This document shows, piece by piece, positions 2,076 to 64,000 of a DNA stretch of 64,000 nt (position 1 is its first letter; each line of letters opens with the position of its first letter). The DNA lies in the NCBI GenBank assembly GCA_017436125.1, contig JAFSDS010000026.1, positions 862 to 64,861 of the forward strand, written 5' to 3'. A model generated the notes under the pieces. The model worked only from the letters and a program-made list of their open reading frames with translations. It did not search any database and was not told the origin of the DNA. Origin of the DNA: Oscillospiraceae bacterium (GTDB lineage Bacteria; Bacillota; Clostridia; Oscillospirales; Ruminococcaceae). The position numbers and the translations under genes are program-made.

Positions 2076-2335
2076 TAATACTATGCAGCCGGTTAATTGA
2101 ATTTATTGAGATTTTGTAATATAATTTTAAAGGCTGGTTGTTTTTTAAAATCAGTCACAAAAAGGATAAAATTTCCTATAATAATGTATAATAATTTTAA
2201 TATAAATACTTGTTTTTTTACAGGTGTTATGTTAAACTGATTATAATAGCAAAATGAATTATTGTCGGAATTTATGTCCGGCATAATCGTGTTGCAAAAT
2301 TTTCGGAAAAAACAAAAGAATGTGAGGGAAAAACA

Positions 2336-4120
2336 ATGAAACGTATTTTTTCCATCATGGTAGCTGTTATCATGGTTCTCGCTCTTGGCGTTACTGCACT
2401 TGCAGTTGCACCGGACAAAACCGTTAACGTTACCATCACCCCCAGTGTTACCGAAATTCCTGTTGGCAGCACTGAAAACAGAGTAGTTTTCACTGTCGAA
2501 GCAGAACCTTCTGCCGCCGGTTTTGACGTAATCGCTCTTGTTGTTAAAGGCGAAAACGACAAAATCCTTGTAGATACTGCAGACGGCTTCGACTATAACG
2601 CAGATCTGGAGTATCATCCTAAATATACTCCCGATGGTTATTTTGAAAGCGTAAAAATAGAAGAGTTCCTTTATATTGAGGATTCTCTTTATATTTTCTT
2701 TGCAGAAGGCAGAAAACCCCTTCAGGAGAAAGTTGCTCTTGCAACTTTTACCGCAACCATTGATACCAGCGTTGCAGGTGAATATTCCATTCAGCTTTGC
2801 AACCTTGGCGTTGACAGCGTTGCCGGTACCAGCGAAGAGAACCATACCATCAACGTAACCAGCATCCCCGTAAAAGTTGTTTGCGGCCATACCGGCGAAA
2901 CCGAAGTTAAAAATGCAGCAGAAGCAAACTGCGGCAACAGCGGTTATACCGGCGATGTTTACTGCAAAGACTGCGGTGAGAAAATTGCAGACGGTGAAGT
3001 AATCGAAGCAACCGGCAAACACGTTGGCGGCACTGCAACCTGTAAAGAACAGGCAGTTTGCGAAATCTGCGGAAACAAATATGGCGAACTTGCTGCACAC
3101 AAAGGCGGCACTGCAACCTGCAAAACCAAAGCAGTTTGCGAAGTTTGCGGCGATTCCTACGGTGAACTTGATGCAGCAAACCACGAAGAAAAAGAACCCG
3201 TTCTTTACGACGTAGTTGAAGCAACCTGCACTACCCCCGGCTTTACCGGAAACAAAGATTATCTCTGCTGCGGCCAGACCATCCCCGGCAGCACCACCCC
3301 CAAGAACCCCGATAACCACGGCGAACATGGAACCAAAGTTATCAACGCAGTAGCTCCTGACTGCAAGAACGACGGTTATACCGGCGATACCGCTTGCGAA
3401 GGATGCGGAAAAGTTCTTGCTAACGGCACTGCTATCCCTGCAACCGGAAACCACGGCGGCGGCGAAGCAAACTGCCAGAAAGGTGCTATCTGCGCAGGAT
3501 GCGGAACTGAATATACCAAACCGGATCCTGATATTCACGTAAACACCGAAGTAAGAGATGCTAAAGAAGCAACCTGCGGCGATGAAGGCTATACCGGCGA
3601 TACTTACTGCAAAGACTGCGGCGCTAAAGTAAAAGACGGTGAAGCAATTCCTGCAACCGGCGAACATAAAGGCGGCAGCGCAACCTGCTCCACTCTTGCA
3701 GAGTGCTCTGTATGTAAACAGCCTTACGGCGAATACAATCCCGAAGTTCACGAAAAAGAATACTCTATCGTAAAAGAACCTACTTGTACCGAAGTTGGTG
3801 AAAGAGCAGTAACCTGCAAATGCGGAACCGTTCTTCCCAGCGAAGAGATCGAAGCTCTCGGACATGAGTATGGTGATTGGGTAGTTGTAAAACCTGCAAC
3901 CAAGAAAGAAGAAGGCAGCAAAGAACGTACCTGCGAACGTTGCGGTGACGTTGAATCTGCTGTTATTCCTAAGATCAAAGATACTGAAAACAGCATCATC
4001 ATCGACATGAATGGCAAAGGCCAGACCGGCGGGGAATCCAACCCCAATACCGGTGCTCCCGTATTCGGTGTAGTTGCCCTTGCAGCATGCGCAGTTGCTG
4101 TTATCGGTAAAAAACACTAA
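2336..4120 (+). CDS. Secreted surface protein: signal peptide, cohesin-like module, six Cys-rich (CxxC) modules, C-terminal sorting signal
   Basis: GAGGGA RBS. Signal peptide ends ...ALA/VAP. Repeated C-x5-GYTGD-x2-C-x2-CG and GG-x-ATC-x6-C-x2-CG modules. C-terminus is NPNTG + hydrophobic helix + KKH. Confidence 0.85.
   Translation: MKRIFSIMVAVIMVLALGVTALAVAPDKTVNVTITPSVTEIPVGSTENRVVFTVEAEPSAAGFDVIALVVKGENDKILVDTADGFDYNADLEYHPKYTPDGYFESVKIEEFLYIEDSLYIFFAEGRKPLQEKVALATFTATIDTSVAGEYSIQLCNLGVDSVAGTSEENHTINVTSIPVKVVCGHTGETEVKNAAEANCGNSGYTGDVYCKDCGEKIADGEVIEATGKHVGGTATCKEQAVCEICGNKYGELAAHKGGTATCKTKAVCEVCGDSYGELDAANHEEKEPVLYDVVEATCTTPGFTGNKDYLCCGQTIPGSTTPKNPDNHGEHGTKVINAVAPDCKNDGYTGDTACEGCGKVLANGTAIPATGNHGGGEANCQKGAICAGCGTEYTKPDPDIHVNTEVRDAKEATCGDEGYTGDTYCKDCGAKVKDGEAIPATGEHKGGSATCSTLAECSVCKQPYGEYNPEVHEKEYSIVKEPTCTEVGERAVTCKCGTVLPSEEIEALGHEYGDWVVVKPATKKEEGSKERTCERCGDVESAVIPKIKDTENSIIIDMNGKGQTGGESNPNTGAPVFGVVALAACAVAVIGKKH
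2411..2881 (+). other. Cohesin-like beta-sandwich module (domain-level call)
   Basis: Pattern VNVTITPS..IPVGS..VVFTVEAEP..AGFDVIALVV...LYIFFAEG..EKVALATFTATIDTSVAGEYSIQL...IPVKVV resembles type-I cohesin strand order. Recognised by eye only. Confidence 0.45.
4040..4120 (+). other. Cell-wall sorting-type signal (NPNTG, TM helix, basic tail)
   Basis: ES-NPNTG-APVFGVVALAACAVAVIG-KKH-stop. Confidence 0.6.
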
Positions 4121-4143
4121 TTTTTCCGAAAATATAATCAGCA

Positions 4144-4172
4144 GAAAGGATGCCTAATAAGCATCCTTTTTG
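4144..4172 (+). terminator. Rho-independent terminator
   Basis: aaggatgc-ctaataa-gcatcctt followed by a T-run. Confidence 0.75.
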
Positions 4173-4188
4173 CCTATAAAAGCAACAG

Positions 4189-4229
4189 AGAAAACGGTCC
4201 TGTTTTATAAGGACGGGACCGTTTTCTTA
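4189..4229 (+). terminator. Second hairpin terminator
   Basis: aaaacggtcc...ggaccgtttt (10-bp stem) followed by ctt. Confidence 0.5.
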
Positions 4230-4316
4230 CGGAAATAAAAGATATTGAAATGTTTTTAAAAAGCATTAAAAACAGTTTAATGTTTTTTATTTAAAAGAAT
4301 AGTGAGGTTGGTCGTT

Positions 4317-6791
4317 ATGAAAAAAATAATCGCATTGGTTATGGCATTCTGTCTTGCTTTCGGCGGAGCACCCGCTGTTATGGCAGAAGAAACTATTGAT
4401 CCCTATTCCGGTATTGAGGGAAGCGGAAGCTATACTTACGTTGCTCCCTGGGTATCTGAAGAGGAACTTTCCGTAGTTTATGATGATAACATTGTTGTTG
4501 AAGAAATTCCGGTGCTTTATTCTTCCGGCAATCCCGAGTATACAGCTGATTTGACCGTGATAGCAGATCAGATGAGAGAAAAAATGGTAGCAAGAGAAAA
4601 AACTGCCGCGTTCTATTATGAGTTTGACAGCGCCCCTGTTCTTGAAATTATCGAAGCTAAGGAAGAAGAACTTGGCAGAGAAATTACCAACGATGAATAT
4701 GTAAGCATTGTAAATGCATATCTTAAAGAACTTGTTAACGGTTTAAGAGCGGAGGCTTTTAAAGAAACCGGTGTTTCTGTTGAGGGTGACTATCTTTACA
4801 GACATGTTGGAAGAATCGGCCTTACTTATTCCTGGTCCTACAGAAAACCATATTTTAAGGTGATAATCAGTTTTTCTGAAAAAGCCGGAAAAGATATGCT
4901 TTATTTCTCCACTGCGGAGCAGGAAGCTGAGCTTACCAAAGCTATTGAAGAAGTAAAAGCAGGTTTTGGCTTTACCGATAAAACCAACGATTATGAAAAA
5001 GTAAAAACAATTTATGATTATATAACCGCAAACGTCACTTACGACTGGGCAAACCTTAATAACGATGCAAATCTTGTAAAATTCTCCGCATACGGTGCAC
5101 TTATAAATAAAACCTGTGTTTGCCAGGGATATGCATCCCTTCTTTACAGATTTTTGACTGAAGAGGGTATTTCCGTAAGAATTATCGGCGGAACCAGCCA
5201 GGGGAAGGGCCATGCATGGAACATCGTTCGCCTCGGCGATTATTACTACAATGCAGACTCCACCTGGGATGCGGGCAGAGCGGAATATGAATACTTCCTT
5301 TGCGGAAAAAACAATTTTGATGACCATACCCGCGATGCTGAGTGTGATACCGCAGAGTTCCATTCTGCACATCCCATGAGCGAAACGGATTTTGATCCGA
5401 ATACTCTTCCGAAGGATTATACTGTAACCTATGATGCAAACGGCGGAACCGGCGCTCCTTCTTCCGAAACAGTTGCAGCCGGCGAAAACACTGTGATCAC
5501 CGATGTTGTTCCGGAAAAAGAAGGCTATGTATTCCTTGGCTGGGCGGCAGCTGCCGATGCAGCCAAAGCGGAATATAAAGCCGGAGATCAGTATTCTAAC
5601 GGTGAGGATATTACCCTCTATGCAGTATGGGAAGAAAATCCCTATATCGCAAGCGGTTACTGCGGCGGTGAAGGCGACGGAACAAACCTCAGCTGGACTC
5701 TTGATAAAAAAGGTCTTCTTACCATAAGCGGAACCGGAGCAATGGCTGATTATGAAAGGATCTTTGTTCGCGACGAAGCAACCGGACGCTATTACGCTAA
5801 AACAACAACCCCGTGGGTAGATTATAAGGGCACTGTTAAAACCATTGTTCTTGAAGAAGGAATGACCACTGTCGGAAGCTATGCTTTCTATAGCATGGCT
5901 CTTGAGGGAGAACTTGTTCTTCCCAAAACCCTTAAATCCATCGGAAACTGGGGCATTGCAGTAAATAATTTTACCGGCGACCTCGTAATTCCGGAAGGCT
6001 TTGAATCCCTTAAAACTGCGGCTCTTCAGGGTGTGGGAGATTTTGAGGATGTAAGCATTCCTTCCACCCTTACCTCCATTATTGCAGCTCCTTTCAGATA
6101 TTGCAGAGTAAAGAACATAAATGTTGCTGAAAGCAACCCGAACTTTAAATCTGTTGACGGAATTATGTTCGATAAAACCGGAACAAAACTTATCCAGTTC
6201 CCGGATGCACGTACCGGAGAATACACCGTTCCGGAAGAAGTTTCCCATATCGGAAGCAGTGCATTTGATACCAGCGATCTTTCAAAAGTAGTTGTTAAGG
6301 GCAACGTTACAATGGTCGAAAGTATGGCCTTTAACGGATTCAGCGGAAAGGTATTCTTTGAAGGCGAAGTTAACAGAGTTGTTTTTGAAGCTTTCGGATA
6401 TCCTCAGGACGGAGATACCGATATTTACTTCCTTAACGGACCGCCTAAAACTATTGAGATAGATGAATATGGCGCTTCCTTTGGACCCGGATCTGTTCTT
6501 TATTACCTTAAAGGTACCGAGGATAAATGGGAGTTTGATGAAAACGGCCTTTGGAACGGATACGAAGTTCATGAATACGATCCCGGTGCTATCGAAACCG
6601 GCGACACAAACGGTGACGGCGTTATCAATGCCCGTGACAGCCAGAGGCTTTATGAATATATCGTCGGAAAAAACAAAACCGATGACGAGACTGTAATTAA
6701 AGCGATGGACGTTAACGGCGACGGTGTTGTAAATGCCCGTGACAGCCAGAGACTTTATGAACATATTATCGGAAAAAATCCTTTGGATTAA
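4317..6791 (+). CDS. Dockerin protein with transglutaminase-like core, Listeria-Bacteroides (Flg_new) repeat and a BspA-type LRR cassette
   Basis: ATG at 4317 lies 9 nt after GAGG (the ORF track starts at GTG 4302). Signal peptide MKKIIALVMAFCLAFGGAPAVMA. Cys-His-Asp core CQGYASL...GHAWNIV...DSTWD. YTVTYDANGGTG...ITLYAVW repeat. LRR_5-like repeats. Two dockerin segments at the C-terminus. Confidence 0.85.
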   Translation: MKKIIALVMAFCLAFGGAPAVMAEETIDPYSGIEGSGSYTYVAPWVSEEELSVVYDDNIVVEEIPVLYSSGNPEYTADLTVIADQMREKMVAREKTAAFYYEFDSAPVLEIIEAKEEELGREITNDEYVSIVNAYLKELVNGLRAEAFKETGVSVEGDYLYRHVGRIGLTYSWSYRKPYFKVIISFSEKAGKDMLYFSTAEQEAELTKAIEEVKAGFGFTDKTNDYEKVKTIYDYITANVTYDWANLNNDANLVKFSAYGALINKTCVCQGYASLLYRFLTEEGISVRIIGGTSQGKGHAWNIVRLGDYYYNADSTWDAGRAEYEYFLCGKNNFDDHTRDAECDTAEFHSAHPMSETDFDPNTLPKDYTVTYDANGGTGAPSSETVAAGENTVITDVVPEKEGYVFLGWAAAADAAKAEYKAGDQYSNGEDITLYAVWEENPYIASGYCGGEGDGTNLSWTLDKKGLLTISGTGAMADYERIFVRDEATGRYYAKTTTPWVDYKGTVKTIVLEEGMTTVGSYAFYSMALEGELVLPKTLKSIGNWGIAVNNFTGDLVIPEGFESLKTAALQGVGDFEDVSIPSTLTSIIAAPFRYCRVKNINVAESNPNFKSVDGIMFDKTGTKLIQFPDARTGEYTVPEEVSHIGSSAFDTSDLSKVVVKGNVTMVESMAFNGFSGKVFFEGEVNRVVFEAFGYPQDGDTDIYFLNGPPKTIEIDEYGASFGPGSVLYYLKGTEDKWEFDENGLWNGYEVHEYDPGAIETGDTNGDGVINARDSQRLYEYIVGKNKTDDETVIKAMDVNGDGVVNARDSQRLYEHIIGKNPLD
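6600..6791 (+). other. Dockerin module (two Ca-loop/helix segments)
   Basis: GDTNGDGVINARDSQRLYEYIVGK ... DVNGDGVVNARDSQRLYEHIIGKNPLD. Confidence 0.8.
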
Positions 6792-6868
6792 TAACAAAGT
6801 ATAAAATATAACTTTAATTTGTAAATTGAGGGAAACAAAATCCCTGGTTATAAAAGGAGAAGTTGAAG

Positions 6869-9826
6869 ATGAAAAAGAAAATTCTGTCCTTGGTATTAGC
6901 TTTGACCATGATTTTCGGCGGAATTGTTCCGGCTTTTGCTGTTGAACTTAAACCCATCGAAGATTATGTTCCCAATACCGAAGAAAACGAAGTAGTTTCC
7001 GGTGAGGAAGAAATCGTTGAAGAAATTCCTGTTATGTATGCAGCACAGACCGGATATTGCGGCGATTATCTTGACTGGGAATATGAAGCAGGTGTTCTTA
7101 CCATTTTTGGTGAAGGCGCTATGTATGACTATACCGTCAAATCTTCTGTATTTGAAACAAAAGTTGATACTCCTTGGTTCAATTTTAAAGACAGCATTAC
7201 TTCCGTAGTTATTGAAGATGCAACCACCATTGGTGATTATGCTTTCTACGGATGCTCCAAACTTGCTTCTGTTACCACTGCAGACAGTGTTGAATCCATC
7301 GGTGACGGTGCATTTTACGGATGCTCTGCACTTAAGGATGCTGTTCTCCCCAAAGAACTTAAAACAATCGGAACCAGTGCTTTTGAAAACGCAGGACTTA
7401 ACGGTAAAGTAATTCTTGGCGAAAAAGTAACCTCCGTTGGCGAAAAAGTATTTAAAGGAACCTCCATTACCGAAGTAGGTATTCCTGCTGGAGTAGAATT
7501 TATTGGTATCGGCGCATTCTGTGCAAAAGAAGGTCTTGTAACCATCTCTGTTGCAGCAGAAAACGAAAACTATGTTGCTGTTGATAATGTACTTTTCAGC
7601 AAAGACATGAAAACCATTATGCAGTATCCCTCCGGAGCAGCTGCAGCAGAATATACCGTTCCTTACGGCGTTGAAAAAATCGAAAGCTATGCTTTTGCCG
7701 GCAATAACATCAAAACTGTTGTTGTTCCCGAAAGCGTAACTCTTGTTGAACGTCACGCATTTACCGGATGCACTAACCTTGAAAATGTTACCTTCGGCGG
7801 AAAAGCTCCCGAAGTTTATGCGGCAACGCATGACGACCCTTCCTTCAACGTTAAAACCGAACTTAACTATGTTGCAGGTTCCGAGGGCTGGGATCCCGTC
7901 GGCGGCGAATGGAACGGATATAAAGCAGTTCCTCTTGGCTTTGTGGAAATTGCAAGCGGAACCTGCGGCGATAACGCTGAATGGACCCTTGGAAGCGACG
8001 GAAAACTTGTTATCAGCGGCAGCGGCGAAATGTATGACTATGCAGTAAAATCTGTTCTTCCTACCATTTCCACCACTGCTCCCTGGGATGCATATAAAGA
8101 AGCTATCAAAGAAGTTTCTGTTGAAGACGGCATTACCTCCGTCGGAGCTGCTGCTTTCTACGGATGTGAATACATCGAAGAAGTTGAACTTGCAGATTCT
8201 GTAAAAGAAATCGGCAACATCGCATTTTACGGATGCAAAAAACTTGCTGCTGTTAAAGGTGCAAAAGGCCTTGTTACCATCGGAAACTCCGCTTTTGCAA
8301 GAACTTCCATTACTGAATTTACCGTTGCAAAAACCGTAACCTCTATCGGTACTAACGTATTTGATGAAACCGCAAAACTTGCTTCCATCAAAGTTGAAGA
8401 AGGCAACGCAAACTATGTTTCTGTTGACGGTGTTCTTTTCACCGCAGATAAAGAAACTCTTATCAAATATCCCTCTGCAGCAACTGCAGCTGAATATGTT
8501 GTTCCCAGAGGCGTTAAAACTGTTGAGATCCTTGCATTTGAAAACCCCAACCTCGCAAGAATTTATCTTCCCGAAAGCTTTGAAGAAGCTGAATATATGG
8601 CATTCTCCAAATGCGAAAGCCTTAAACATGTTTACTTCAGGGGCGACGCTCCCAAAGTTTCCGCAGCAGATATCCCGATTGCTTCTTTCGGCGAGGGTGT
8701 AACCCTTTATTATATCAGCGGAACCGAAGGCTGGACTGAAGGTACCTGGAACGGATATACCTGCAAAGTATGGGAAATTGATGTAATCGCAAGCGGAACC
8801 TGCGGCGAAGGCCTTACCTGGACTCTTGATGGTGCAGGAAAACTTATCATTTCCGGCGCAGGAAAAATGGATGATTATGATATCCTCTCCTATGACGGCG
8901 TTGATGCAATAACCAGCGCTCCCTGGGATAGCTATGAACGTTTTATCACTTCTATCTCCATCGGCAACGAAGTAACTTCCATCGGCGATAACGCATTCTA
9001 TAAATATGAAAATGTTGGCGCCGCAGTAATCGGAACCACCGTTGAATCCATCGGCCAGAACGCATTCTATGGATGTGAAGGCGTTTCCAGAGTAATCCTT
9101 CCCGAAACCCTTAAAACCATCGGCGACGAAGCTTTTGCCGGAACCGGAATTACTGATATCACTGTTCCTGCTTCCGTAACCTCCATCGGAAACGATGCAC
9201 TTAAAGATACCGATGCACTTGCAAACATCAAAGTTATCGAAGGCAACGCAAACTATGCTTCTGTTGACGGCGTTCTTTTCAGCGCAGACAAAAAAGCACT
9301 TATCAAATATCCTTCTGCAAAAGAAGGAACTTCTTATGAAGCTCCCGCAGGAGTTGAAACTGTTGAAAGCAACGCATTCGACAGCGAAAAACTTACTTCT
9401 GTAACTCTTCCCGAAAGCCTTAAAACCGTTGAGCACAGCGCATTTATCGGCTGCGAAAACCTTAAAGAGGTCGTATTTAACGGAAAAGAACCCACCGTAA
9501 CCGAAGCCGGCAGTGAAGCTTCTTCCTTCGGCGAAAACGTTGTTCTTTACTATTTCGAAGATAACGGCTGGACCGTTGAAAACGAAAAATGGAACGGTTA
9601 TACCACCAAAGTATATGTTGAATATCTCCGCGGCGACGTTAACGAAGACGGTTTTGTAAATGCCCGTGACAGCCAGAGACTTTATGAACACCTTGTTGGT
9701 AAAAAACCTCTTATCGAAGGTTCCAAAGGCCTTAAAGCAGCTGACGTTAACGAGGACGGCATTATCAACGCCCGCGACAGCCAGAGACTTTATGAACACC
9801 TTGTTGGTAAAAAACCTTTTGTATAA
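6869..9826 (+). CDS. Dockerin protein with three tandem BspA-type LRR cassettes
   Basis: AAAGGAGA lies 9 nt before ATG 6869. Signal peptide ...GGIVPAFA. Three cassettes each start with xxGxCG..W(T/E)...G.L.I.G.G.MYDY and end with ...GW...WNGY. Dockerin at the C-terminus. Confidence 0.85.
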   Translation: MKKKILSLVLALTMIFGGIVPAFAVELKPIEDYVPNTEENEVVSGEEEIVEEIPVMYAAQTGYCGDYLDWEYEAGVLTIFGEGAMYDYTVKSSVFETKVDTPWFNFKDSITSVVIEDATTIGDYAFYGCSKLASVTTADSVESIGDGAFYGCSALKDAVLPKELKTIGTSAFENAGLNGKVILGEKVTSVGEKVFKGTSITEVGIPAGVEFIGIGAFCAKEGLVTISVAAENENYVAVDNVLFSKDMKTIMQYPSGAAAAEYTVPYGVEKIESYAFAGNNIKTVVVPESVTLVERHAFTGCTNLENVTFGGKAPEVYAATHDDPSFNVKTELNYVAGSEGWDPVGGEWNGYKAVPLGFVEIASGTCGDNAEWTLGSDGKLVISGSGEMYDYAVKSVLPTISTTAPWDAYKEAIKEVSVEDGITSVGAAAFYGCEYIEEVELADSVKEIGNIAFYGCKKLAAVKGAKGLVTIGNSAFARTSITEFTVAKTVTSIGTNVFDETAKLASIKVEEGNANYVSVDGVLFTADKETLIKYPSAATAAEYVVPRGVKTVEILAFENPNLARIYLPESFEEAEYMAFSKCESLKHVYFRGDAPKVSAADIPIASFGEGVTLYYISGTEGWTEGTWNGYTCKVWEIDVIASGTCGEGLTWTLDGAGKLIISGAGKMDDYDILSYDGVDAITSAPWDSYERFITSISIGNEVTSIGDNAFYKYENVGAAVIGTTVESIGQNAFYGCEGVSRVILPETLKTIGDEAFAGTGITDITVPASVTSIGNDALKDTDALANIKVIEGNANYASVDGVLFSADKKALIKYPSAKEGTSYEAPAGVETVESNAFDSEKLTSVTLPESLKTVEHSAFIGCENLKEVVFNGKEPTVTEAGSEASSFGENVVLYYFEDNGWTVENEKWNGYTTKVYVEYLRGDVNEDGFVNARDSQRLYEHLVGKKPLIEGSKGLKAADVNEDGIINARDSQRLYEHLVGKKPFV
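9630..9826 (+). other. Dockerin module
   Basis: GDVNEDGFVNARDSQRLYEHLVGKKP ... DVNEDGIINARDSQRLYEHLVGKKP. The two halves share an exact 42-nt repeat (9668-9709 and 9776-9817). Confidence 0.8.
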
Positions 9827-9832
9827 GATATG

Positions 9833-9864
9833 AAAGAAGCCCCGGATTTTCCGGGGCTTTTTTA
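9833..9864 (+). terminator. Rho-independent terminator (GCCCCGG family)
   Basis: agccccgg-atttt-ccggggct followed by T6. Confidence 0.85.
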
Positions 9865-9893
9865 TTGTTTTGATATGATGAATGGAGTATAAT
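9865..9893 (+). promoter_or_regulatory. Putative sigma-A promoter TTGTTT-17-TATAAT
   Basis: Hexamers at 9865-9870 and 9888-9893, 36 nt upstream of ATG 9930. Confidence 0.5.
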
Positions 9894-9929
9894 ACCATAC
9901 ATAAGATATCTTACATTTCGGAGGATAAA

Positions 9930-12479
9930 ATGAAAAAGACCATAGGCCTTGTTGTTCTTATTCTTATGATTTTTGCTGTTTTTTCGGTCAATGCTTTTGC
10001 GGCAACAACCCTTGCAAGCGGTTATTGCGGCGGAGAAGGCGACGGAACAAATCTTACCTGGACCATAGACGGCGATGGGACCCTTACCATAAGCGGAACC
10101 GGTGCCATGAAAAATTATCACTGTAAGTTTGACGGTGTATCGTTTCAGTATCTTACAACCGCGCCATGGGGTGAATATCGTGACAAGATAAATACCCTTG
10201 TGCTTAGTGAAGGTATAACAACAATCGGTGAATACGCTTTCAGTGAGTGCTCAAATCTTAAAGGAGAACTTATGCTTCCGAGCACTTTAACAGACATAGA
10301 AGGATATGCTTTTAAAAGCTGCAGCGGTTTTACCGGAGATCTTATTATTCCGGACAGCGTAGTAAATATAGGCGCACTTGCATTCTATAAATGCGAAGGC
10401 TTTGACGGAAAGCTTGTAATAAGCAAAAATGTAACATCTGTTGAACAGGCAACTTTCCAGTCGTGTTATGGCTTGAGCGGAAATCTTATTATTCCTGAAG
10501 GAGTAACTAAAATTGCCAAATATGCTTTTAACGGCTGTAAAAGTTTTACAGGCGATCTTATAATCCCGGACAGCGTAACCGAAATCGGAGAAGAAGCATT
10601 TTCTGTTTGTGACGGTTTTGACGGAAAATTGGTAATAGGCAAAAATGTTTCGGTAATAGAAAAGGCAGCCTTTGAATTTTGCGATGCTCTTAAAGGTTCC
10701 GTTGTTTTAAGCGATAAAATAACAAATATCGGAAGCTATGCTTTTAAATTCTGCGGAATAAACGAATATTATTTTGAAGGAAATGCCCCAACCGTAACTG
10801 CGGCAGACGTGACGGGTTCTTCTTTTGATTCCGCTAAAGATACGATTTATTATCCTGCGGATAATACTTCCTGGGTCATAACCGACGGCCTTTGGAACGG
10901 ATATAAAACCGCTGCGCTTATTGCATCCGGTTATTGCGGCGGAGAAGGCGACGGAACAAATCTCGCCTGGACCCTTACCGCGGACGGAACCCTTACCATA
11001 AGCGGAACCGGGAAAATGGCGGACTATGATTACGATTATGATGTATACGATAACGGCTATACCCATACAACCGCTCCCTGGTTTGCATATAAGGAAAGCC
11101 TTAATACCCTTGTTCTTAAAGAGGGCATAACCTATATCGGAAAATGCGCTTTTTCAAATCTTGATACCCTTAGCGGAAATCTTACACTTCCGAAGAGTCT
11201 GGAATCCATAGGCTATGCAGCGTTCAGCAAATGCTCCGGTTTCAGCGGAAATCTTGTTCTTCCCAATGGCCTTAAAACCATAGGCGCGCATGCTTTTGCC
11301 GAATGCGAAAACTTTGTTGGAAGCCTTACTATTCCGGAGAGCGTCACCGAACTCGGTGCTTCTGCATTCAGAGAATGCCGAGGATTTGACGGAACGCTCA
11401 CCGTTCCGGGAAGCATTAAAGAAATCAATGAATGGACATTCTTTATCTGCGACGGATTCAGTAAGCTTGTTCTCGGCGAGGGCATAGAAACTATTAAACA
11501 GGAAGCTTTTTCAAACAGCGAAGGATATACAGGAAAACTTATCCTTCCGGAAAGCCTTGAATCCATAGGATATTCGGCTTTTCAGTATTGTGAAGGGTTC
11601 ACCGGTGATCTTGTTATCCCGAACAGCGTAACATCCATCGGAGATTGTGCGTTCAAAGATTGCAGAGGTTTTGACGGAAAACTCGTCCTTTCCGAAAATC
11701 TTCTTTCCATAGGGGAACAGGCTTTCAGCTGGTGCAAAAACTTTAACGGCGACCTTATCATTCCGGACAGCGTAACGGAAATAGATGCCTATGCCTTCCA
11801 GACCTGCAGCGGTTTTGACGGAAAAATCGTTATAGGTAAAAACGTAAAAACCATTGGTATGAATGCCTTCAATAACTGCTCCGGACTTACCGGTGATCTT
11901 ATTATTCCGGACAGCGTAACTGAAATAGGCGAAAGAGCGTTTGCTATGTGCGTAAAACTTGACGGGGAACTTGTTCTTTCAAAGAAGCTTACGAGAATAA
12001 ATGACAGTGTTTTCGAATATTGCAAAAACCTTTCCGGAAAAGTTGTTATCCCGGCAAATATCCTGAGCATCAGGGATGATGCCTTTGATGAATGCGGAAT
12101 CGATAAATTCTATTTTGAGGGCAACGCCCCCTCCGTAAGGATTGCAACGGCCACAAACTCCTCTTTTGATGCTGAAAAGGACGTTATTTATTATCCCGTC
12201 GGAAACGGCACCTGGGAGATTGTTGACGGAAAATGGAACGGCTATAATGTCAAAACATATGACCCTAATGTAAAAATTATGATCGGTGACTGCAATGGCG
12301 ACGGGGTAATAAATGCCCGCGACAGCCAGAGGCTTTATGAGCATATTGTCGGTAAAAATCCCTTTGCAAAAGGTTCCGATGAATATACTGCCGCCGATGT
12401 TAACGGCGACGGAATCATCAATGCCCGTGACAGCCAGAGACTTTATGAACATATAGTCGGCAAAAATCCCCTTAATTAA
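9930..12479 (+). CDS. Dockerin protein with two long BspA-type LRR cassettes
   Basis: GGAGGA lies 5 nt before ATG 9930 (the ORF track starts at 9882). Signal peptide MKKTIGLVVLILMIFAVFSVNAFA. Two ASGYCGGEGDGTNL.WT... cassette starts. Many xIPxSVxxIGxxAFxxC repeats. Dockerin at the C-terminus. Confidence 0.85.
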   Translation: MKKTIGLVVLILMIFAVFSVNAFAATTLASGYCGGEGDGTNLTWTIDGDGTLTISGTGAMKNYHCKFDGVSFQYLTTAPWGEYRDKINTLVLSEGITTIGEYAFSECSNLKGELMLPSTLTDIEGYAFKSCSGFTGDLIIPDSVVNIGALAFYKCEGFDGKLVISKNVTSVEQATFQSCYGLSGNLIIPEGVTKIAKYAFNGCKSFTGDLIIPDSVTEIGEEAFSVCDGFDGKLVIGKNVSVIEKAAFEFCDALKGSVVLSDKITNIGSYAFKFCGINEYYFEGNAPTVTAADVTGSSFDSAKDTIYYPADNTSWVITDGLWNGYKTAALIASGYCGGEGDGTNLAWTLTADGTLTISGTGKMADYDYDYDVYDNGYTHTTAPWFAYKESLNTLVLKEGITYIGKCAFSNLDTLSGNLTLPKSLESIGYAAFSKCSGFSGNLVLPNGLKTIGAHAFAECENFVGSLTIPESVTELGASAFRECRGFDGTLTVPGSIKEINEWTFFICDGFSKLVLGEGIETIKQEAFSNSEGYTGKLILPESLESIGYSAFQYCEGFTGDLVIPNSVTSIGDCAFKDCRGFDGKLVLSENLLSIGEQAFSWCKNFNGDLIIPDSVTEIDAYAFQTCSGFDGKIVIGKNVKTIGMNAFNNCSGLTGDLIIPDSVTEIGERAFAMCVKLDGELVLSKKLTRINDSVFEYCKNLSGKVVIPANILSIRDDAFDECGIDKFYFEGNAPSVRIATATNSSFDAEKDVIYYPVGNGTWEIVDGKWNGYNVKTYDPNVKIMIGDCNGDGVINARDSQRLYEHIVGKNPFAKGSDEYTAADVNGDGIINARDSQRLYEHIVGKNPLN
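12285..12479 (+). other. Dockerin module
   Basis: GDCNGDGVINARDSQRLYEHIVGKNP ... DVNGDGIINARDSQRLYEHIVGKNPLN. Confidence 0.8.
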
Positions 12480-55978: not shown

Positions 55979-56175
55979 TCAGTGAAGAGGATCTTTGCCG
56001 ACTATATGTTCATAGAGCCTTTGGCTGTCGCGGGCATTTATGATTCCGTCTTCGTTAACATCGGCCGCTTTGTATCCGTAAGATCCGTTTTCGAGTGGTT
56101 CCTTACCGACTATATGCTCATAAAGTCTCTGGCTGTCACGGGCATTTACAAAGCCGTCACAGTTACAGTCACCGA
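55979..56175 (-). other. Dockerin module
   Basis: GDCNCDGFVNARDSQRLYEHIVGKEP ... DVNEDGIINARDSQRLYEHIVGKDPLH. Confidence 0.8.
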
Positions 56176-57994
56176 GAAGTACTCCGGAGGGGCCGGATAT
56201 CGGAACGGTGAAATCATGATAGAAAAGTATGGAGTTATATTCAAGGCTCTGTATGGTTGCGTAATCGCCGTTGACTGTTACGACTGTGTTTGTGTCATAT
56301 TCGTAAGTGGTAGTGAGCCTTACTTTAAGGCGATAGGTTTTTCCCTCCTGAACGGTATCCCATGAGCCAACCCGGAAATCACCGTCATACCATTCATAGG
56401 CATAGATCCTTGAATAATCATCGGAAAGGGAAGGAACAGGGAAATCTCCGCCGTGGACAGGGAACGGAACATTTACTTTAATGGACGAAAGAACGCCCAC
56501 GGAAGTTTCGGGGAAAGTGTATTTTACAACGATTTTATTTTGGTTTTTAAAATCAACGGTCGCTTTTTTTCCGTTAACGGTTGCAAAAACGCCGTCATCT
56601 TTAAAAAGCGTTCCGTCGCCGATAAGATGTATCCTTACTTCATAAGCGGTATCTGTTTCATAGTTTTTTGTAACCTGACCTCTATCGTTCCACCATGTAA
56701 CAAGAGGAGCACCGTTTTCGGTCATTATTTCGTATCCGCAGTTGTTCGGAACATAAGCGGAGGTGCTTACAGGAGAACCCGACTTCGGAGGAACAACACC
56801 GTTTATTTCGACTTCTGTAATCCTTGTTTCGGGTGGGTTATGTTCAGCCGTAAAAGTATAGCTGACCTCCAGATAGTCCGTGCCGCCGGCGTATTTTATG
56901 TCGGATACGGAGTATTTTGAAAAATCAAGTCCGGTAAAAGTTGCGGAAATATTTTCGGGATCCGCAAATTTATATCCGTCGTTGGCATCAAATATTACCT
57001 GAAGAGTATATTTTTCTCCGGCCCAAAAAGCATTGCTTCCGTTAAGAATTTTTCCGCTGCTGTTTTTCCATGAATAGGAGGCGTGAACAATAGTATAATC
57101 GGAATTGCTCGGAACGCACATAAAGTTTTCGCGGACGGGATAAGCAAAGCTTCCGTGCTTTGGAAGTTCAAGTCCGCCGATTTCTATTGCAGCAATCTCA
57201 TAAAGTTCCGTGATATAATAAGGGATTTTTACGGTAAGTTCTTTTTTGTCACTGTTGAACTGTTTTTCGCACTTAACAGGTCCGTTGTTCTGCCATACGT
57301 CAACGTCATTTGAAAATTTATAGCCGCTGTTGGCCTTTAAAACAATGTTAAAATAATATTTTTCACCGGCAGAAAATCTGTCGGATTTTCCCATTACCTT
57401 GCTTCCGTAACTCCAATAGGAACTTACAACTTCGGAGTTATCATAAAGATGAACGAAAGAAACGGAAGGAGTTTCTCCGTCACGGGGGTTTCTGATATCA
57501 CGGAACTCGACCTTATTTATATCCGGATAGGTCCTTGTTCCGCTGACAGTAAAAGTAAATTTTACGGTTATGATTGAACGGTCACCGTGGATATAGGTCA
57601 CTTCGGAAGAATATTTATCGGAGCTTATTCCGCCAAGGGTAAGCTTAATATTGTTCGGGTCGCCAAAAACGCATCCGACTTTCGCATATACGTTAAAATC
57701 GACGCTGTACGTTCTTCCGGATTCAAACTTATAGTTTATATCGTCGATTACGGTGCCTTTTTCGTCCTTCCAGCTAAAGGACTGGAGCCGTAATTCATAA
57801 GGCACGCCGCTTGGAACACTAACGGCGTTGTATGTTGACATTTCAGCAGCTTTTTCACCGGCTATGGGAGCATGGATACCGTTTATTGTAACGTTTTGGA
57901 TAGTTGTGGCAGCAAAAGTGCTCGTCGGCATAAAACCTAAAAGCATAATAAAGCAAAGCAAAAAACATACCAGGCGCATTTTTGTTCTTCTCAT
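55979..57994 (-). CDS. Dockerin protein with five tandem ~115-120-aa beta-rich repeats
   Basis: ATG 57994 lies 9 nt after AAGGAG (the track starts at TTG 58000). Signal peptide ...PTSTFAATT. Five repeats share I..V.I.G...P..G....VP....Y......W.....G..Y......A..GY.F. Dockerin at the C-terminus. Confidence 0.85.
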   Translation of the reverse strand: MRRTKMRLVCFLLCFIMLLGFMPTSTFAATTIQNVTINGIHAPIAGEKAAEMSTYNAVSVPSGVPYELRLQSFSWKDEKGTVIDDINYKFESGRTYSVDFNVYAKVGCVFGDPNNIKLTLGGISSDKYSSEVTYIHGDRSIITVKFTFTVSGTRTYPDINKVEFRDIRNPRDGETPSVSFVHLYDNSEVVSSYWSYGSKVMGKSDRFSAGEKYYFNIVLKANSGYKFSNDVDVWQNNGPVKCEKQFNSDKKELTVKIPYYITELYEIAAIEIGGLELPKHGSFAYPVRENFMCVPSNSDYTIVHASYSWKNSSGKILNGSNAFWAGEKYTLQVIFDANDGYKFADPENISATFTGLDFSKYSVSDIKYAGGTDYLEVSYTFTAEHNPPETRITEVEINGVVPPKSGSPVSTSAYVPNNCGYEIMTENGAPLVTWWNDRGQVTKNYETDTAYEVRIHLIGDGTLFKDDGVFATVNGKKATVDFKNQNKIVVKYTFPETSVGVLSSIKVNVPFPVHGGDFPVPSLSDDYSRIYAYEWYDGDFRVGSWDTVQEGKTYRLKVRLTTTYEYDTNTVVTVNGDYATIQSLEYNSILFYHDFTVPISGPSGVLLGDCNCDGFVNARDSQRLYEHIVGKEPLENGSYGYKAADVNEDGIINARDSQRLYEHIVGKDPLH

Positions 57995-58063
57995 GATCAA
58001 GCGCTCCTTCCAAAATATATTACAAAGTGTATGAAAGAAATTTTCATATATCTTTACATTCTA

Positions 58064-58092
58064 ATTATATTTTTTAAAAGGAAAAGCGTCAA
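58064..58092 (-). promoter_or_regulatory. Sigma-A promoter TTGACG-17-TATAAT (minus strand)
   Basis: Reverse complement gives TTGACG (58092-58087) and TATAAT (58069-58064), upstream of the dockerin gene. Confidence 0.6.
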
Positions 58093-58142
58093 TACCCATT
58101 TTAAAAAGCGGTGTGGGAAAAAGTGTGAGCAAAACAGAAAAA

Positions 58143-59336: not shown

Positions 59337-59380
59337 AATCTTATGAAAACAGTTCTTTTTTTAGAAAGGGGAAAGGCTTT

Positions 59381-60340: not shown

Positions 60341-60349
60341 TCAGAATAT

Positions 60350-60380
60350 AAAAAAGCCCCGGAATATCCGGGGCTTTTTT
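60350..60380. terminator. Bidirectional terminator (GCCCCGG family)
   Basis: agccccgg-aatat-ccggggct flanked by A6 and T6. Confidence 0.85.
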
Positions 60381-60393
60381 GTTTACTTAACTA

Positions 60394-62085
60394 TCAGTCA
60401 AGAGGGTCTTTGCCAACGATATGCTCATAAAGCCTCTGGCTGTCGCGGGCATTGATAACGCCGTCGCCGTTGACGTCTGCCGCTTTATATTCGGCGGAAA
60501 CATTCACAATGGGATCTTTACCGACTATGTGCTCATATAGCCTCTGGCTGTCGCGGGCATTGACAACGCCGTCGCCGTTACAGTCGCCAAGTAGGAACTT
60601 TGCATTGGGATCATAGGCTTTTGCGTTATAGCCGTTCCATTTGCCGTCAATGATTTCCCAGGTGGTGTTGTCGGCGGTGTAATAAATAGTATCTTTTGCA
60701 GACTCGAAAGAGGGTTCTTCTTCTGTTGCCGCGATGACAACCGGTGCATCTCCTTTGAAATAAAATCTGTCAACACTGCAATTACGAAAAGCCTCTGCAC
60801 CGATTTTTGTTATTTTATCGTGTAAAACAACACTTCCTTTAAAATTGGGACAATATCCAAACGCAAAACCGTCTATAACAGAAACATTTTTCCCGACAAC
60901 AAGGTTTCCGTCAAAACCGCTGCAGAAGGAAAAAGCAGAGCGACCAATGGTTGTTACACTGTCAGGGATAATAAGATCCCCCGTAAATCCATTGCAGCTT
61001 GAAAAAGCTAATGAACCAATAGATGTTACGCCGTCAGGGATAACGAGGTTTCCGGTAAAACCCTTGCAATCGTTAAAAGCCCAGTCTCCGATGGATTTAA
61101 CGTTTTTAGGAATAATAAGTTCACCTGTAAAACCGGAACAATAGCAAAAAACGTAGGTGTTAATAGTTGTGATACCGTTCGGAATAACAAGTTTTCCGTT
61201 AAAGCCTTCGCAGCTCATAAAGGCACCGGATCCGAGACTTGTTACACTATCCGGAATTACAAGGTCTCCGGTAAAACCTTCACAACCAAGAAAAGCGTTT
61301 GCACCTATCGTTTTAAGGCTATTCGGAAGATTGAGTTTGCCGGTAAATCCACTGCAATTAGAGAACGCACCCGAATTGATAGTAGTTACGCTTTTTGGAA
61401 TTGTAAGTTTTCCTTTAATGTTGCTGCATCCCAAAAAAGCATTTCGTCCAATCTGGGTTATTCCTTCTTCAAGAACAAGGCTATTAAATTTATCAAGATA
61501 ATTTGCCCATGGTGCAGTTGTGATCCAATTACTGAAGTCATAAGCATAATTATACATCTGTCCCTTGCCTTTGATTCTGAGAACTCCTTTTGAATCAATC
61601 ATCCATGCAAGGTTAATTCCGGTGCCTTCCGCACCGCAATAGCCGCTGGCAATATAATCATCGGGATCGAATTCCGGGGAATATTCCTCCGGTTTTTCGG
61701 GTTCTTTACCATCTAGATAGATATATGTTACCGTAAGATAAAGATCATTGTCGTCATCCATGGATTTGGTGTATTTGATATCATAACCCTCAAGAGCGTT
61801 ATATCCCAAGTCGTATTTGTTATAATCGTCACCTTCCGACGTTACACCCGTAATTGAATAATCAAAATCATCCGGAGGTTCGGGCTGAAAACCCATTCCA
61901 TAATGCTGACCGTATAACAAAAAACCAATATAGACACTTTCGGGCGGATTTTCATCCTTTTCAACATTTTCCCATTTAACTTTAATATAAATGTTAACCT
62001 TTCCGGTATCGGCCGCAAAAGCGGGAACACTTGCAAAGCTTAAAAACATTGCAAGGCATAAAATGATGCTTATTATTTTTTTCAT
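60394..62085 (-). CDS. Dockerin protein: N-terminal ~150-aa domain plus one BspA-type LRR cassette
   Basis: GGAGGG RBS. Signal peptide ...SVPAFAAD. ASGYCGAEGTGINLAW cassette start. LRR_5 repeats. WNGY cap. Two dockerin segments. Confidence 0.85.
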   Translation of the reverse strand: MKKIISIILCLAMFLSFASVPAFAADTGKVNIYIKVKWENVEKDENPPESVYIGFLLYGQHYGMGFQPEPPDDFDYSITGVTSEGDDYNKYDLGYNALEGYDIKYTKSMDDDNDLYLTVTYIYLDGKEPEKPEEYSPEFDPDDYIASGYCGAEGTGINLAWMIDSKGVLRIKGKGQMYNYAYDFSNWITTAPWANYLDKFNSLVLEEGITQIGRNAFLGCSNIKGKLTIPKSVTTINSGAFSNCSGFTGKLNLPNSLKTIGANAFLGCEGFTGDLVIPDSVTSLGSGAFMSCEGFNGKLVIPNGITTINTYVFCYCSGFTGELIIPKNVKSIGDWAFNDCKGFTGNLVIPDGVTSIGSLAFSSCNGFTGDLIIPDSVTTIGRSAFSFCSGFDGNLVVGKNVSVIDGFAFGYCPNFKGSVVLHDKITKIGAEAFRNCSVDRFYFKGDAPVVIAATEEEPSFESAKDTIYYTADNTTWEIIDGKWNGYNAKAYDPNAKFLLGDCNGDGVVNARDSQRLYEHIVGKDPIVNVSAEYKAADVNGDGVINARDSQRLYEHIVGKDPLD

Positions 62086-62122
62086 TTCTTTCCCTCCGTT
62101 TGATAGGGTTTATTACACCTTG

Positions 62123-62150
62123 ATTATACCACTTTTATAAATTAAAGCAA
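62123..62150 (-). promoter_or_regulatory. Sigma-A promoter TTGCTT-16-TATAAT with TGn extension (minus strand)
   Basis: Reverse complement gives TTGCTT (62150-62145) and gTGgTATAAT (-10 at 62128-62123). Confidence 0.6.
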
Positions 62151-62152
62151 AT

Positions 62153-62185
62153 AAAAAAGCCCCGGAATATCCGGGGCTTTTTTTG
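62153..62185 (-). terminator. Rho-independent terminator (GCCCCGG family)
   Basis: agccccgg-aatat-ccggggct flanked by A and T runs. Confidence 0.85.
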
Positions 62186-62193
62186 CTTAACTA

Positions 62194-63540
62194 TCAGTCA
62201 AGAGGGTCTTTGCCAACGATATGCTCATAAAGTCTTTGGCTGTCGCGGGCATTGATAATGCCGTCGCCGTTGACGTCTGCCGCTTTATATTCGGCGGAAA
62301 CATTCACAATGGGATCTTTACCGACTATGTGCTCATAAAGTCTTTGGCTGTCGCGGGCGTTGATAACGCCATCGCCGTTACAGTCGCCAAGGAGGAACTT
62401 TGCATTGGGATCATAGGCTTTTGCGTTATAGCCGTTCCATTTGCCGTCAATGATTTCCCAGGTGGTGTTGTCGATGGGGTAATAGATAACATCCTTTTCA
62501 ACATTGAAAGAGAAGTTCGTAGACGTTGCTATTTTTACGGAGGGGGCGCTGCCCTCAAAATAAAATTTATCGACCCCACAGTTGCGGAATGCATTATTAC
62601 CGATTTTTGTTATTTTATCATGCAGAACAACTTTATCTTTAAGATTGGAACAACCATCAAAGGTACGTTCATTTATGACAGAAACACCGGTACCTATAAC
62701 GAGATTTCCGTCAAAACCACCGCAACTTGAAAAAGCAGAGCTGCCAATGGTTGTTACACTGTCGGGGATAATAAGGTCACCGGTAAAACCGTAGCAGTAG
62801 GAGAAAGCAGAGTAGCCAATAGTTGTTACGCTGTCTGGAATAACAAGACTTCCGGTAAAACTTTCGCAGCTATAAAATGCATCATTACCAATAGTTGTTA
62901 CACTGTCAGGGATAACAAGATTACCGTTAAAACCGTCGCAGCCATAAAAAGCACCATCGCCAATAGTTGTTACGCTATCCGGAATAACAAGACTTCCGGT
63001 AAAGCCGTCGCAGTCCAAAAAAGCAGAGTTGCCAATAGTTGTTACACCGTTTCCAATAACGAGGCTTCCTGTAAAACCGTCGCAGTTTACAAAGGCATAG
63101 CTGCCAATAGTTATTACGCTATCAGGAATAATAAGCTGTCCGGTGAGCCGTTTACAGCCAGAAAACACACTGGAACCTATTTCTGTTACACTGTTTGGGA
63201 TAATAAGATTCCCGGTAAAGCAGTAGCAGTCATAAAAAGCGCAATCTCCGATATATGTTATACCTTCTTCAAGAACAAGTGTTTTAAAACTGTCAAGATA
63301 GTCCCACCATGGAGCGGTGGATATCCAATCGTCATCAACATATTCTTCATCATAATCTTTCATTTTTCCGGTTCCGCTTATGGTGAGAACACCGTCGGAA
63401 TCAAGCGTCCAGCTGAGATTTGTTCCGTCGCCTTCCGCGCCGCAATATCCGCTTGCAACAGTTTCCGCACCAAAAGAATTCACCGGAATAACTCCGAAAA
63501 TCATAATCATGCAAAGCATGATGCTTATTACTTTTTTCAT
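62194..63540 (-). CDS. Dockerin protein with one BspA-type LRR cassette
   Basis: GGAGGG RBS. Signal peptide ...PVNSFGAE. ASGYCGAEGDGTNLSWTLD cassette start. Repeated LVIPDSVTTIG..AF..C. Dockerin at the C-terminus. Confidence 0.85.
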   Translation of the reverse strand: MKKVISIMLCMIMIFGVIPVNSFGAETVASGYCGAEGDGTNLSWTLDSDGVLTISGTGKMKDYDEEYVDDDWISTAPWWDYLDSFKTLVLEEGITYIGDCAFYDCYCFTGNLIIPNSVTEIGSSVFSGCKRLTGQLIIPDSVITIGSYAFVNCDGFTGSLVIGNGVTTIGNSAFLDCDGFTGSLVIPDSVTTIGDGAFYGCDGFNGNLVIPDSVTTIGNDAFYSCESFTGSLVIPDSVTTIGYSAFSYCYGFTGDLIIPDSVTTIGSSAFSSCGGFDGNLVIGTGVSVINERTFDGCSNLKDKVVLHDKITKIGNNAFRNCGVDKFYFEGSAPSVKIATSTNFSFNVEKDVIYYPIDNTTWEIIDGKWNGYNAKAYDPNAKFLLGDCNGDGVINARDSQRLYEHIVGKDPIVNVSAEYKAADVNGDGIINARDSQRLYEHIVGKDPLD

Positions 63541-63577
63541 TTCTTTCCCTCCGTTCGATAGGGCTTATTACACTTTG

Positions 63578-63605
63578 ATTATATCACTTTTATAAATTAA
63601 AGCAA
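63578..63605 (-). promoter_or_regulatory. Sigma-A promoter TTGCTT-16-TATAAT (minus strand), paralogous to 62123-62150
   Basis: Same architecture and nearly the same sequence as the 62123-62150 promoter. Confidence 0.6.
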
Positions 63606-63606
63606 A

Positions 63607-63638
63607 TAAAAAAGCCCCGGGATATCCGGGGCTTTTTT
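63607..63638 (-). terminator. Rho-independent terminator (GCCCCGG family)
   Basis: agccccgg-gatat-ccggggct flanked by A and T runs. Confidence 0.85.
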
Positions 63639-63650
63639 GCTTACTTAATA

Positions 63651-64000
63651 TCAGTCAAGAGGGTCTTTGCCAACGATATGCTCATAAAGTCTTTGGCTGT
63701 CACGGGCATTGATAATGCCGTCGCCGTTGACGTCCGCGGCTTTGTATTCATCGGAGTCCTTAACAAAAGGATTTTTACCGACTATGTGCTCATAAAGTCT
63801 TTGGCTGTCGCGGGCGTTGATAACGCCGTCGCCGTTACAGTCGCCAAGGAGGAACTTTGCATTGGTATCATAAGCTTTTGCGTTATAGCCGTTCCATTTA
63901 CCGTCAATGATTTCCCAGGTGGTGTTGCCGATGGGGTAATAAATGGTGTCTGATGCAGAATCGAAAGAAGGTTCGCTTGCGGTTGCCGCTCGAACACCGG
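63651..64000 (-). CDS. Dockerin/LRR protein, C-terminal part (5' end outside window)
   Basis: Not in the ORF track because no start lies in the window. Manual reverse translation gives ...IYYPIGNTTWEIIDGKWNGYNAKAYDTNAKFLLGDCNGDGVINARDSQRLYEHIVGKNPFVKDSDEYKAADVNGDGIINARDSQRLYEHIVGKDPLD-stop (TGA at 63653-63651). Confidence 0.8.
   Translation of the reverse strand, partial: GVRAATASEPSFDSASDTIYYPIGNTTWEIIDGKWNGYNAKAYDTNAKFLLGDCNGDGVINARDSQRLYEHIVGKNPFVKDSDEYKAADVNGDGIINARDSQRLYEHIVGKDPLD

Follow-up and report, generated by a model that had tools for sequence, protein, structure and literature searches.

A putative surface anchor with a cohesin-like head, encoded beside dockerin-tagged adhesin-like proteins in an uncultured gut Oscillospiraceae bacterium

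We analyzed a 64,000-nucleotide (nt) stretch of contig JAFSDS010000026.1 (assembly GCA_017436125.1, positions 862 to 64,861), hereafter the window, which comes from an uncultured Oscillospiraceae bacterium of the ruminant hindgut. The open reading frame (ORF) at 2336–4120 encodes a protein that is listed at NCBI as 'hypothetical protein' (MBQ7123494.1, Oscillospiraceae bacterium) and that we call the anchor. It consists of an N-terminus that reads as a Sec-type signal peptide, a single β module (the head), a Cys/His-rich stalk and a tail resembling a sortase sorting signal, and it shares the window with seven genes whose products end in closely similar dockerins. On balance we think it probable, if only slightly so, that the anchor is a monovalent anchoring scaffoldin akin to ScaE of Ruminococcus flavefaciens and Sca2 of Ruminococcus bromii, with a divergent head of cohesin fold that would bind these dockerins and thereby display dockerin-tagged adhesins on the cell. 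An earlier note on this DNA, made from the letters of the sequence, had proposed the same four parts for the anchor, and each was found where the note had placed it.

The argument begins with the fold predicted for the head. An AlphaFold2 (AF2) model built on a non-redundant alignment of 15 sequences was all-β, with a pLDDT of 75.9 and a pTM of 0.76. When this model was compared with the PDB by Foldseek, ranks 1–7 were all cohesins, and cohesins of types I, II and III made up 27 of the 50 top matches. The best of these were Clostridium acetobutylicum CohA2 (6kgf; E = 2.5e-6, template modeling (TM) scores 0.56/0.62) and R. flavefaciens ScaC (5lxv; E = 3.3e-6), and the list also held ScaE itself (2zf9; E = 3.3e-4, TMq 0.59), CohG (4n2o), three Clostridium perfringens structures (2jh2, 2vo8, 2w1n) and one from Archaeoglobus fulgidus (2xdh; E = 1.5e-4 to 6.4e-4 for these four). 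A previous AF2 model made from three sequences was weak (pLDDT 59), yet cohesins still led its Foldseek list at a marginal E of 2e-3. With moderate confidence, the head is predicted to adopt a cohesin-like fold that superposes on solved cohesins, and on the strength of the model it most likely works like one.

The second line of evidence is the uniformity of the dockerins. Pfam Dockerin_1 (PF00404) was found in seven genes, with E = 1e-10 to 1e-13 and 39.9–48.7 bits (cut-off 22.9) for the six complete proteins; the seventh gene, which is cut by the window end, is complete on longer contigs (L094/L095), where it encodes a 371-amino-acid (aa) protein with LRR_5 (leucine-rich repeat, LRR) and Dockerin_1 domains. 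Every one of the 14 dockerin segments reads D-x-N-x-D-G-x-[IV]-N-A-R-D-S-Q-R-L-Y-E-[HY], with the canonical calcium loop D-x-N-x-D-G-x-x-N-x-x-D. Because the dockerins are 61–97% identical to one another while the cargo they are attached to diverges (28–62% identity, or unrelated), this sameness, which is far beyond chance, suggests one shared partner. The two-segment dockerins that the earlier note had read at the ends of the three genes following the anchor, and the four further proteins it had placed at 55979–64000 (three complete minus-strand genes and the cut one), were thus all recovered by the Pfam search (Table 1).

Finally, proteins with this head occur beside dockerin genes in other lineages. 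The only full-length homologue returned by an exhaustive phmmer search of 1.8e9 representatives, P0003 (34% identity over the head), has the architecture of the anchor, running from a signal peptide and head through a Cys/His stalk to a hydrophobic tail that ends in KKRK. Its gene starts 31 nt after one whose 275-aa product joins a signal peptide, a β module and a Dockerin_1 domain with segments of the DHQRLFEHLQG type (IMDHQRLFEHLQGIK). Homologues with both head and stalk adjoin dockerin genes in L007/L090 and in L092, a human-gut contig on which a 1245-aa head-and-stalk protein follows an adaptor in which a signal peptide precedes a related module, a second β module, a CarboxypepD_reg-like domain and, finally, a dockerin that reads DHQTLFEHLQG (IGDHQTLFEHLQGI). 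Three large proteins with dockerins of other flavors and a short, anchored paralogue also belong to the L092 locus. In three lineages, therefore, the dockerin flavor 'D-x-Q-x-L-[YF]-E-H' goes with this head type. At a fourth locus (L098), a 623-aa protein retains the same stalk and the tail SGKTFDAG...KKK, but carries an unrelated head and a Big_2 domain, and the dockerin of its upstream neighbor is of a different flavor (IIDVGMLYSYVLG). Compared with L007, this looks like the module swap of a cognate pair in which stalk and tail were kept. Such a joint change of head and dockerin flavor is the pattern expected of cognate pairs, although the sample is small and the relationship correlative.

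Two further observations concern these loci. L098 (8384–11117) and L007 (600–3662) each present a comparable pair of a dockerin protein and a stalk protein beside an Fe-hydrogenase-like gene. The human-gut relatives L092 (343–19763) and L090 (1139–5851) appear to hold a multi-tier set in one locus, in which a short anchored module protein of ~290 aa and a long Cys/His-stalk anchor occur together with a module-module-dockerin adaptor and with dockerin proteins of 1792 and 1853 aa.

Table 1. The anchor, the dockerin genes and a terminator-like hairpin in the window, with positions counted from the first nucleotide of the window.
Feature	Coordinates	Strand	Description and basis
Anchor gene	2336..4120	+	594 aa; made up of the four parts in the next four rows
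Putative signal peptide	2336..2410	+	aa 1-25, MKRIFSIMVAVIMVLALGVTALAVA; inferred by reading the translation
Head module, predicted cohesin-like β-sandwich	2411..2881	+	aa 26-182, ~157 aa; predicted fold; family without a Pfam model
Cys/His-rich stalk	2882..3970	+	aa 183-545, 363 aa; no Pfam match
Putative C-terminal sorting signal	4040..4120	+	NPNTG, 18 hydrophobic residues APVFGVVALAACAVAVIG, KKH, stop
Transglut_core + Flg_new + LRR_5 + two-segment dockerin	4317..6791	+	Secreted; dockerin from ~nt 6597 on; Pfam
Three BspA-type LRR_5 cassettes + dockerin	6869..9826	+	Secreted; dockerin from ~nt 9629 on; LRR_5 1.3e-100, Dockerin_1 6.8e-12
Terminator-like hairpin	9833..9863	+	14-bp stem, then T-run; downstream of gene 6869-9826
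LRR_5 + dockerin	9930..12479	+	Secreted; dockerin from ~nt 12282 on; LRR_5 1e-108, Dockerin_1 2.4e-11
About five repeats of 115-120 aa + same-flavor dockerin	55979..58000	-	Secreted; Pfam Dockerin_1, repeat inspection
LRR_5 + same-flavor dockerin	60394..62085	-	Pfam
LRR_5 + same-flavor dockerin	62194..63540	-	Pfam
Seventh dockerin gene, 3' part	63651..64000	-	Cut at window end; start approximate

The stalk sets the anchor apart in composition, with 30 Cys and 11 His residues against a single Cys in the head. A motif count over aa 183–545 gave eight strict units of the form C-x5-10-C-x1-2-C-...-H and two variants. The Cys-rich region described in the earlier note is therefore real; the number of modules, given there as six, varies with where the unit boundaries are drawn. 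The stalk is homologous to that of the 1245-aa L092 protein (BLASTP E = 9e-10). Judged from these motifs, each unit may use its three Cys and its His to bind Zn. We favor metal binding over disulfide-bonded modules because each unit has an odd number of Cys and a conserved His, and the idea of disulfide-bonded stalk cysteines was dropped. The same Cys3-His stalk is seen in P0003 and in the L092 (9871–13608) and L098 (9246–11117) proteins, and no Pfam family fits it. Such a stalk would be a new type of extracellular spacer.

The anchor ends in NPNTG-APVFGVVALAACAVAVIG-KKH, which is the sole sorting-signal-like C-terminus among all reading frames of the window and has the tripartite layout (motif, hydrophobic segment, basic end) of a sorting signal, as which the earlier note had read it. 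NPXTG is the motif of class B sortases (PMC11987632), and NPNTG fits it.

The cargo is adhesin-like rather than enzymatic in the sense of a cellulosome. The first dockerin gene, 4317–6791, combines Transglut_core (PF01841; E = 3.2e-10, aa 221–314, 40.7 bits, cut-off 23) with Flg_new (3.5e-16), LRR_5 (1.1e-16) and Dockerin_1 (2.6e-12), and its translation shows the CQGYA, GHAWN and NADSTWD motifs of a Cys-His-Asp core. Of the six complete dockerin proteins, five carry LRR_5 cargo, as does the product of the cut gene on the longer contigs. This cargo gave partial matches to the NCBIfam HupY/LrrG models, with scores far under the HupY equivalog cut-off. Pfam detected no glycoside hydrolase family in any dockerin protein of the window. 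Pfam and inspection of the repeats thus agree with the cargo types first noted here (LRR, a transglutaminase-like core and a five-repeat protein, with glycoside hydrolases absent), and the reading of the system as surface display and not a cellulosome fits the cargo within the window. The sole match of the repeat protein at 55979–58000, apart from its dockerin, is a sub-threshold one to CBM_4_9 (E = 1.4e-4, below the gathering score). The anchor is preceded by promoter-like sites and the second dockerin gene is followed by a strong terminator-like hairpin, so that the three genes from the anchor to this hairpin may form one transcript.

Put together, these features suggest the following mechanism. 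The anchor would be exported via Sec, and a sortase, probably of class B type, would join its NPNTG tail to peptidoglycan, or this tail would at a minimum keep the protein in the membrane. The stalk, a rigid spacer of ~360 aa made of small Cys3-His units that are possibly stabilized by Zn, would lift the N-terminal head past the wall. There the head, as a highly divergent cohesin, would bind in a Ca2+-dependent manner the dockerins of at least seven secreted proteins, which are near-identical and internally symmetrical, with NARDSQRLYEH in both segments. In R. flavefaciens, symmetrical group-4 dockerins bind ScaE in a dual mode (PMC5301203), and the two near-identical segments of the window dockerins point, by analogy, to a dual mode here as well. 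The cell surface would then carry interchangeable BspA-type LRR adhesins, one transglutaminase-like protein of papain fold and one repeat protein, with no carbohydrate-active enzymes. With one cohesin per anchor and one dockerin bound at a time, the cargo proteins would compete for sites.

Several results weigh against this reading. Pfam Cohesin (PF00963) misses the head, P0003, P0005 and all 15 family members at E ≤ 10, and phmmer and hmmsearch runs with the anchor, the head and the family profile against PDB sequences returned no cohesin. Neither Pfam nor NCBIfam gave a match to the anchor at E ≤ 0.1. An hhalign comparison of the family profile with CipA cohesin 7 (reference sequence verified as 1aoh) gave E = 0.19 and a probability of 0.3, with the short aligned stretch falling in the expected register. 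With just the head as query, a word-indexed search for homologues found nothing, and hhalign of the family profile was not significant against either the upstream module of L007 (E = 0.013, probability 3%) or the L098 head (E = 0.015). The confidence of the structural model is moderate, the TM scores of its cohesin matches are just 0.55–0.64, and other β-sandwiches (CLIPPER, integrin, YcnI and the diphtheria toxin R domain) are among the matches, ranked lower. The head should accordingly not be filed under Pfam Cohesin: as to the earlier proposal that positions 2411–2881 encode a cohesin-like β-sandwich, the module 'folds as' a cohesin, at moderate confidence, and does not 'score as' one by hidden Markov model (HMM) or PDB sequence search. 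A relative of the head is found in no GTDB species representative, including the metagenome-assembled genome (MAG) whose UvrA is 97% identical to that of the window (Oscillospiraceae bacterium RGIG6405, from sheep rectum; UvrA identity to other ruminant-gut MAGs is 94%). The anchor locus may be strain-variable among close relatives or missing from those MAGs. At the other end of the protein, homologue tails read SGKTFDAG or SPKTADAG; the abundant relatives of ~290 aa have no P-x-T-G, only a hydrophobic segment and KKKK; and the window contains no sortase gene and no TLxTC signature in any frame.

These observations on the tail would also follow if the anchor were held by a C-terminal transmembrane helix, with no sortase cleavage or wall linkage and with NPNTG incidental, everything else being as proposed above. 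Pfam Gram_pos_anchor likewise does not match the anchor and reaches the homologues at E = 0.08–0.16 only. Because the homologue motifs are divergent or absent, sortase processing does not seem to be family-wide. For the anchor itself, however, we consider a plain membrane helix somewhat unlikely, since NPNTG, an 18-residue hydrophobic segment and KKH follow the canonical tripartite layout, and the NPXTG motif is a documented one.

The main rival to the scaffoldin reading concerns the head. It holds that the dockerins are functional but bind a conventional cohesin from another part of the genome, and that the head is some other β-sandwich adhesin or ligand-binding module that lies near dockerin genes through the clustering of surface genes. 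The failure of the head in every cohesin sequence test and the non-cohesin sandwiches among its Foldseek matches would be accommodated by this view, as would the distance of four of the seven dockerin genes from the anchor (>50 kb). Cohesin partners are, moreover, hard to predict: most dockerins of R. flavefaciens LRR proteins bound none of the cohesins tested (PMC5301203). We nevertheless regard a receptor elsewhere as unlikely, given that cohesins dominate the structural matches, that a protein with this head and stalk adjoins a dockerin gene in three separate lineages, and that head type and dockerin flavor shift jointly between L098 and L007.

Many genomes have dockerins without recognizable cohesins, and the window, with no cohesin HMM match anywhere in it and with weak EF-hand Pfam matches coinciding with its dockerins, could be one more such case, in which the modules serve as Ca-binding, EF-hand-like elements for folding, stability or Ca-dependent attachment to wall polymers and have nothing to do with the anchor; we consider this very improbable, because the helix residues that contact cohesin in known dockerins are extremely conserved over seven otherwise divergent proteins, the two dockerin segments are symmetrical, and dockerin genes repeatedly adjoin a module of predicted cohesin fold.

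The principle of an anchored single cohesin, and the cargo types seen here, are already known. ScaE of R. flavefaciens, a sortase-anchored scaffoldin with a single type III cohesin, binds symmetrical group-4 dockerins, including that of a peptidase, and the group-2 dockerin of an LRR protein (PMC5301203). Like the anchor, it has a signal peptide, one N-terminal cohesin or cohesin-like module, a spacer and a C-terminal sortase signal, which in the anchor is putative. Unlike ScaE, the anchor has a head without detectable sequence similarity to it or a Pfam Cohesin match, a Cys/His-rich repeat stalk as spacer and the motif NPNTG in place of LPXTG, and the window shows neither an X-dockerin partner of the ScaB/CttA type nor cellulosomal enzymes. 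Sca2 of the R. bromii amylosome, with 534 aa, one cohesin and a C-terminal sortase signal, binds the dockerins of a peptidase, a '2x LRR' protein and amylases, and was proposed by its authors to be a general cell-surface anchoring device (PMC4611034). It shares with the anchor a single cohesin or cohesin-like module, a sortase-type tail and LRR-type dockerin proteins, which for the anchor are candidate ligands. In contrast, Sca2 also anchors GH13 amylases, of which the window has no counterpart; its stalk differs, and the head of the anchor is unrecognizable as a cohesin by sequence. The architecture of the anchor would match the ScaE/Sca2 type if its head is a cohesin, as the predicted fold suggests.

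The cargo has precedents as well. Among the dockerin-containing proteins of R. flavefaciens FD-1 are 28 LRR and 10 transglutaminase modules, and the group-4b run ORF01263–01267 comprises four SIGN-transglutaminase-like-Doc genes and one SIGN-LRR-Doc gene, arranged head-to-tail in a probable operon (PMC2930009). The window has the same cargo types in a similar tandem layout; it differs in the dockerin flavor NARDSQRLYEH and in the putative cohesin anchor encoded directly upstream in the cluster. Cohesin folds outside cellulose degradation, as predicted for the head, are known from the C. perfringens enzymes GH84C and GH33 and from A. fulgidus 2xdh, but those cohesins assemble enzymes or toxins or lack a known partner, and they include no sortase-type anchor for adhesins. 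The LRR_5 cassettes of the window (E down to 1e-108) resemble those of BspA-type surface proteins such as the HupY/LrrG adhesin; the window proteins, however, carry a C-terminal dockerin for attachment and no wall anchor of their own. Given ScaE, Sca2 and the R. flavefaciens gene run, the pairing and its function, which the earlier note had called not evident from established knowledge, are less unprecedented than was supposed. Taken as a whole, its observations stand, and its interpretation stands in part, being upheld by fold and context and not by the cohesin sequence tests.

The head as such is rare in sequence searches, and its wider family, as a profile brings it together, is abundant in metagenomes. 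The anchor itself is present, as an identical protein, on eight metagenome contigs. The coordinates of the window are shifted by +265 nt relative to the 64,767-bp contig L001/L095 (ENA ERZ28019037 k141_412149), which indicates that the window belongs to a longer assembly of the same organism. Beyond P0003, a profile search added two fragments, and a wider profile, built after a scan of metagenomes, collected 328 clusters, none of which has a precomputed Pfam domain. Most of these are proteins of ~290 aa in which a signal peptide and the module are followed by a T/P/G-rich linker, a hydrophobic segment and KKKK. This short-anchor family is abundant; one 90% cluster alone has 1460 members. On one contig (L101, 7747–10663), a short anchored-module gene and its lplA neighbor directly adjoin both a gene for a phage integrase and a cluster of small phage-like genes (helix-turn-helix, DnaB and others).

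Between the two dockerin clusters of the window lie the housekeeping genes ffh, uvrC, a penicillin-binding protein gene, murE/murF-type ligase genes, ftsZ, uvrB, uvrA and rlmL. Adjoining the second cluster, 53125–55575 (minus strand) encodes an 816-aa secreted protein with a C-terminal Amidase_3 (N-acetylmuramoyl-L-alanine amidase) domain and an N-terminal region of ~630 aa without a family match. It was considered as a dockerin receptor and dropped as unsupported, with no hhalign similarity to the head family. Within the second cluster, 59381–60340 (plus strand) encodes a lipoprotein-like product (N-terminal LILCAC) with a weak match to squalene-hopene-cyclase/prenyltransferase-like repeats; it too was dropped as a receptor for want of support. 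In R. bromii, a 'putative terpene cyclase' module is part of a dockerin protein (PMC4611034), and by analogy a terpene-cyclase-like fold may be a recurrent companion of dockerin systems. The long antisense stop-free ORFs over the anchor and LRR genes (minus strand; 2093–4117, 4743–6248 and 6896–9898, of 674, 501 and 1000 aa) are composition artefacts and not genes, because their translations are of low complexity and the plus strand gives strong Pfam matches.

What differs here is a head family unseen by cohesin HMMs, a stalk of Cys/His repeats, a dockerin flavor, and a host outside the studied ruminococci in which only adhesin-like cargo is in view; a literature search on cohesin, dockerin and Oscillospiraceae returned no description of such a system. 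The known principle is unchanged, ScaE and Sca2 already being monovalent anchored cohesins for non-enzymatic cargo. More tentatively, we suggest as possible, if not quite probable, that the wider family (at least 328 gut-metagenome clusters) is one of HMM-invisible cohesins, that its Cys/His-stalk subfamily is the specific receptor of 'QxL[YF]EH' dockerins, and that the two form a non-enzymatic, multi-tier adhesin display in uncultured gut Oscillospiraceae. Short membrane anchors would form one tier of this display, cohesin-dockerin adaptors another, and long anchors made of possibly Zn-binding Cys3-His units a third. Were this true, such cohesins could be the missing partners of the ruminococcal LRR-protein dockerins that bound no tested cohesin. 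Surveys of cohesin-dockerin systems depend on cohesin HMMs, so a family that the models miss would mean that these systems are under-counted in gut Clostridia, and some 'orphan' dockerins may have partners that have gone unrecognized. With cargo of adhesin-like type, the system would bear on adhesion by uncultured Oscillospiraceae, be it to particles, to host surfaces or to other cells, and not on fiber degradation.

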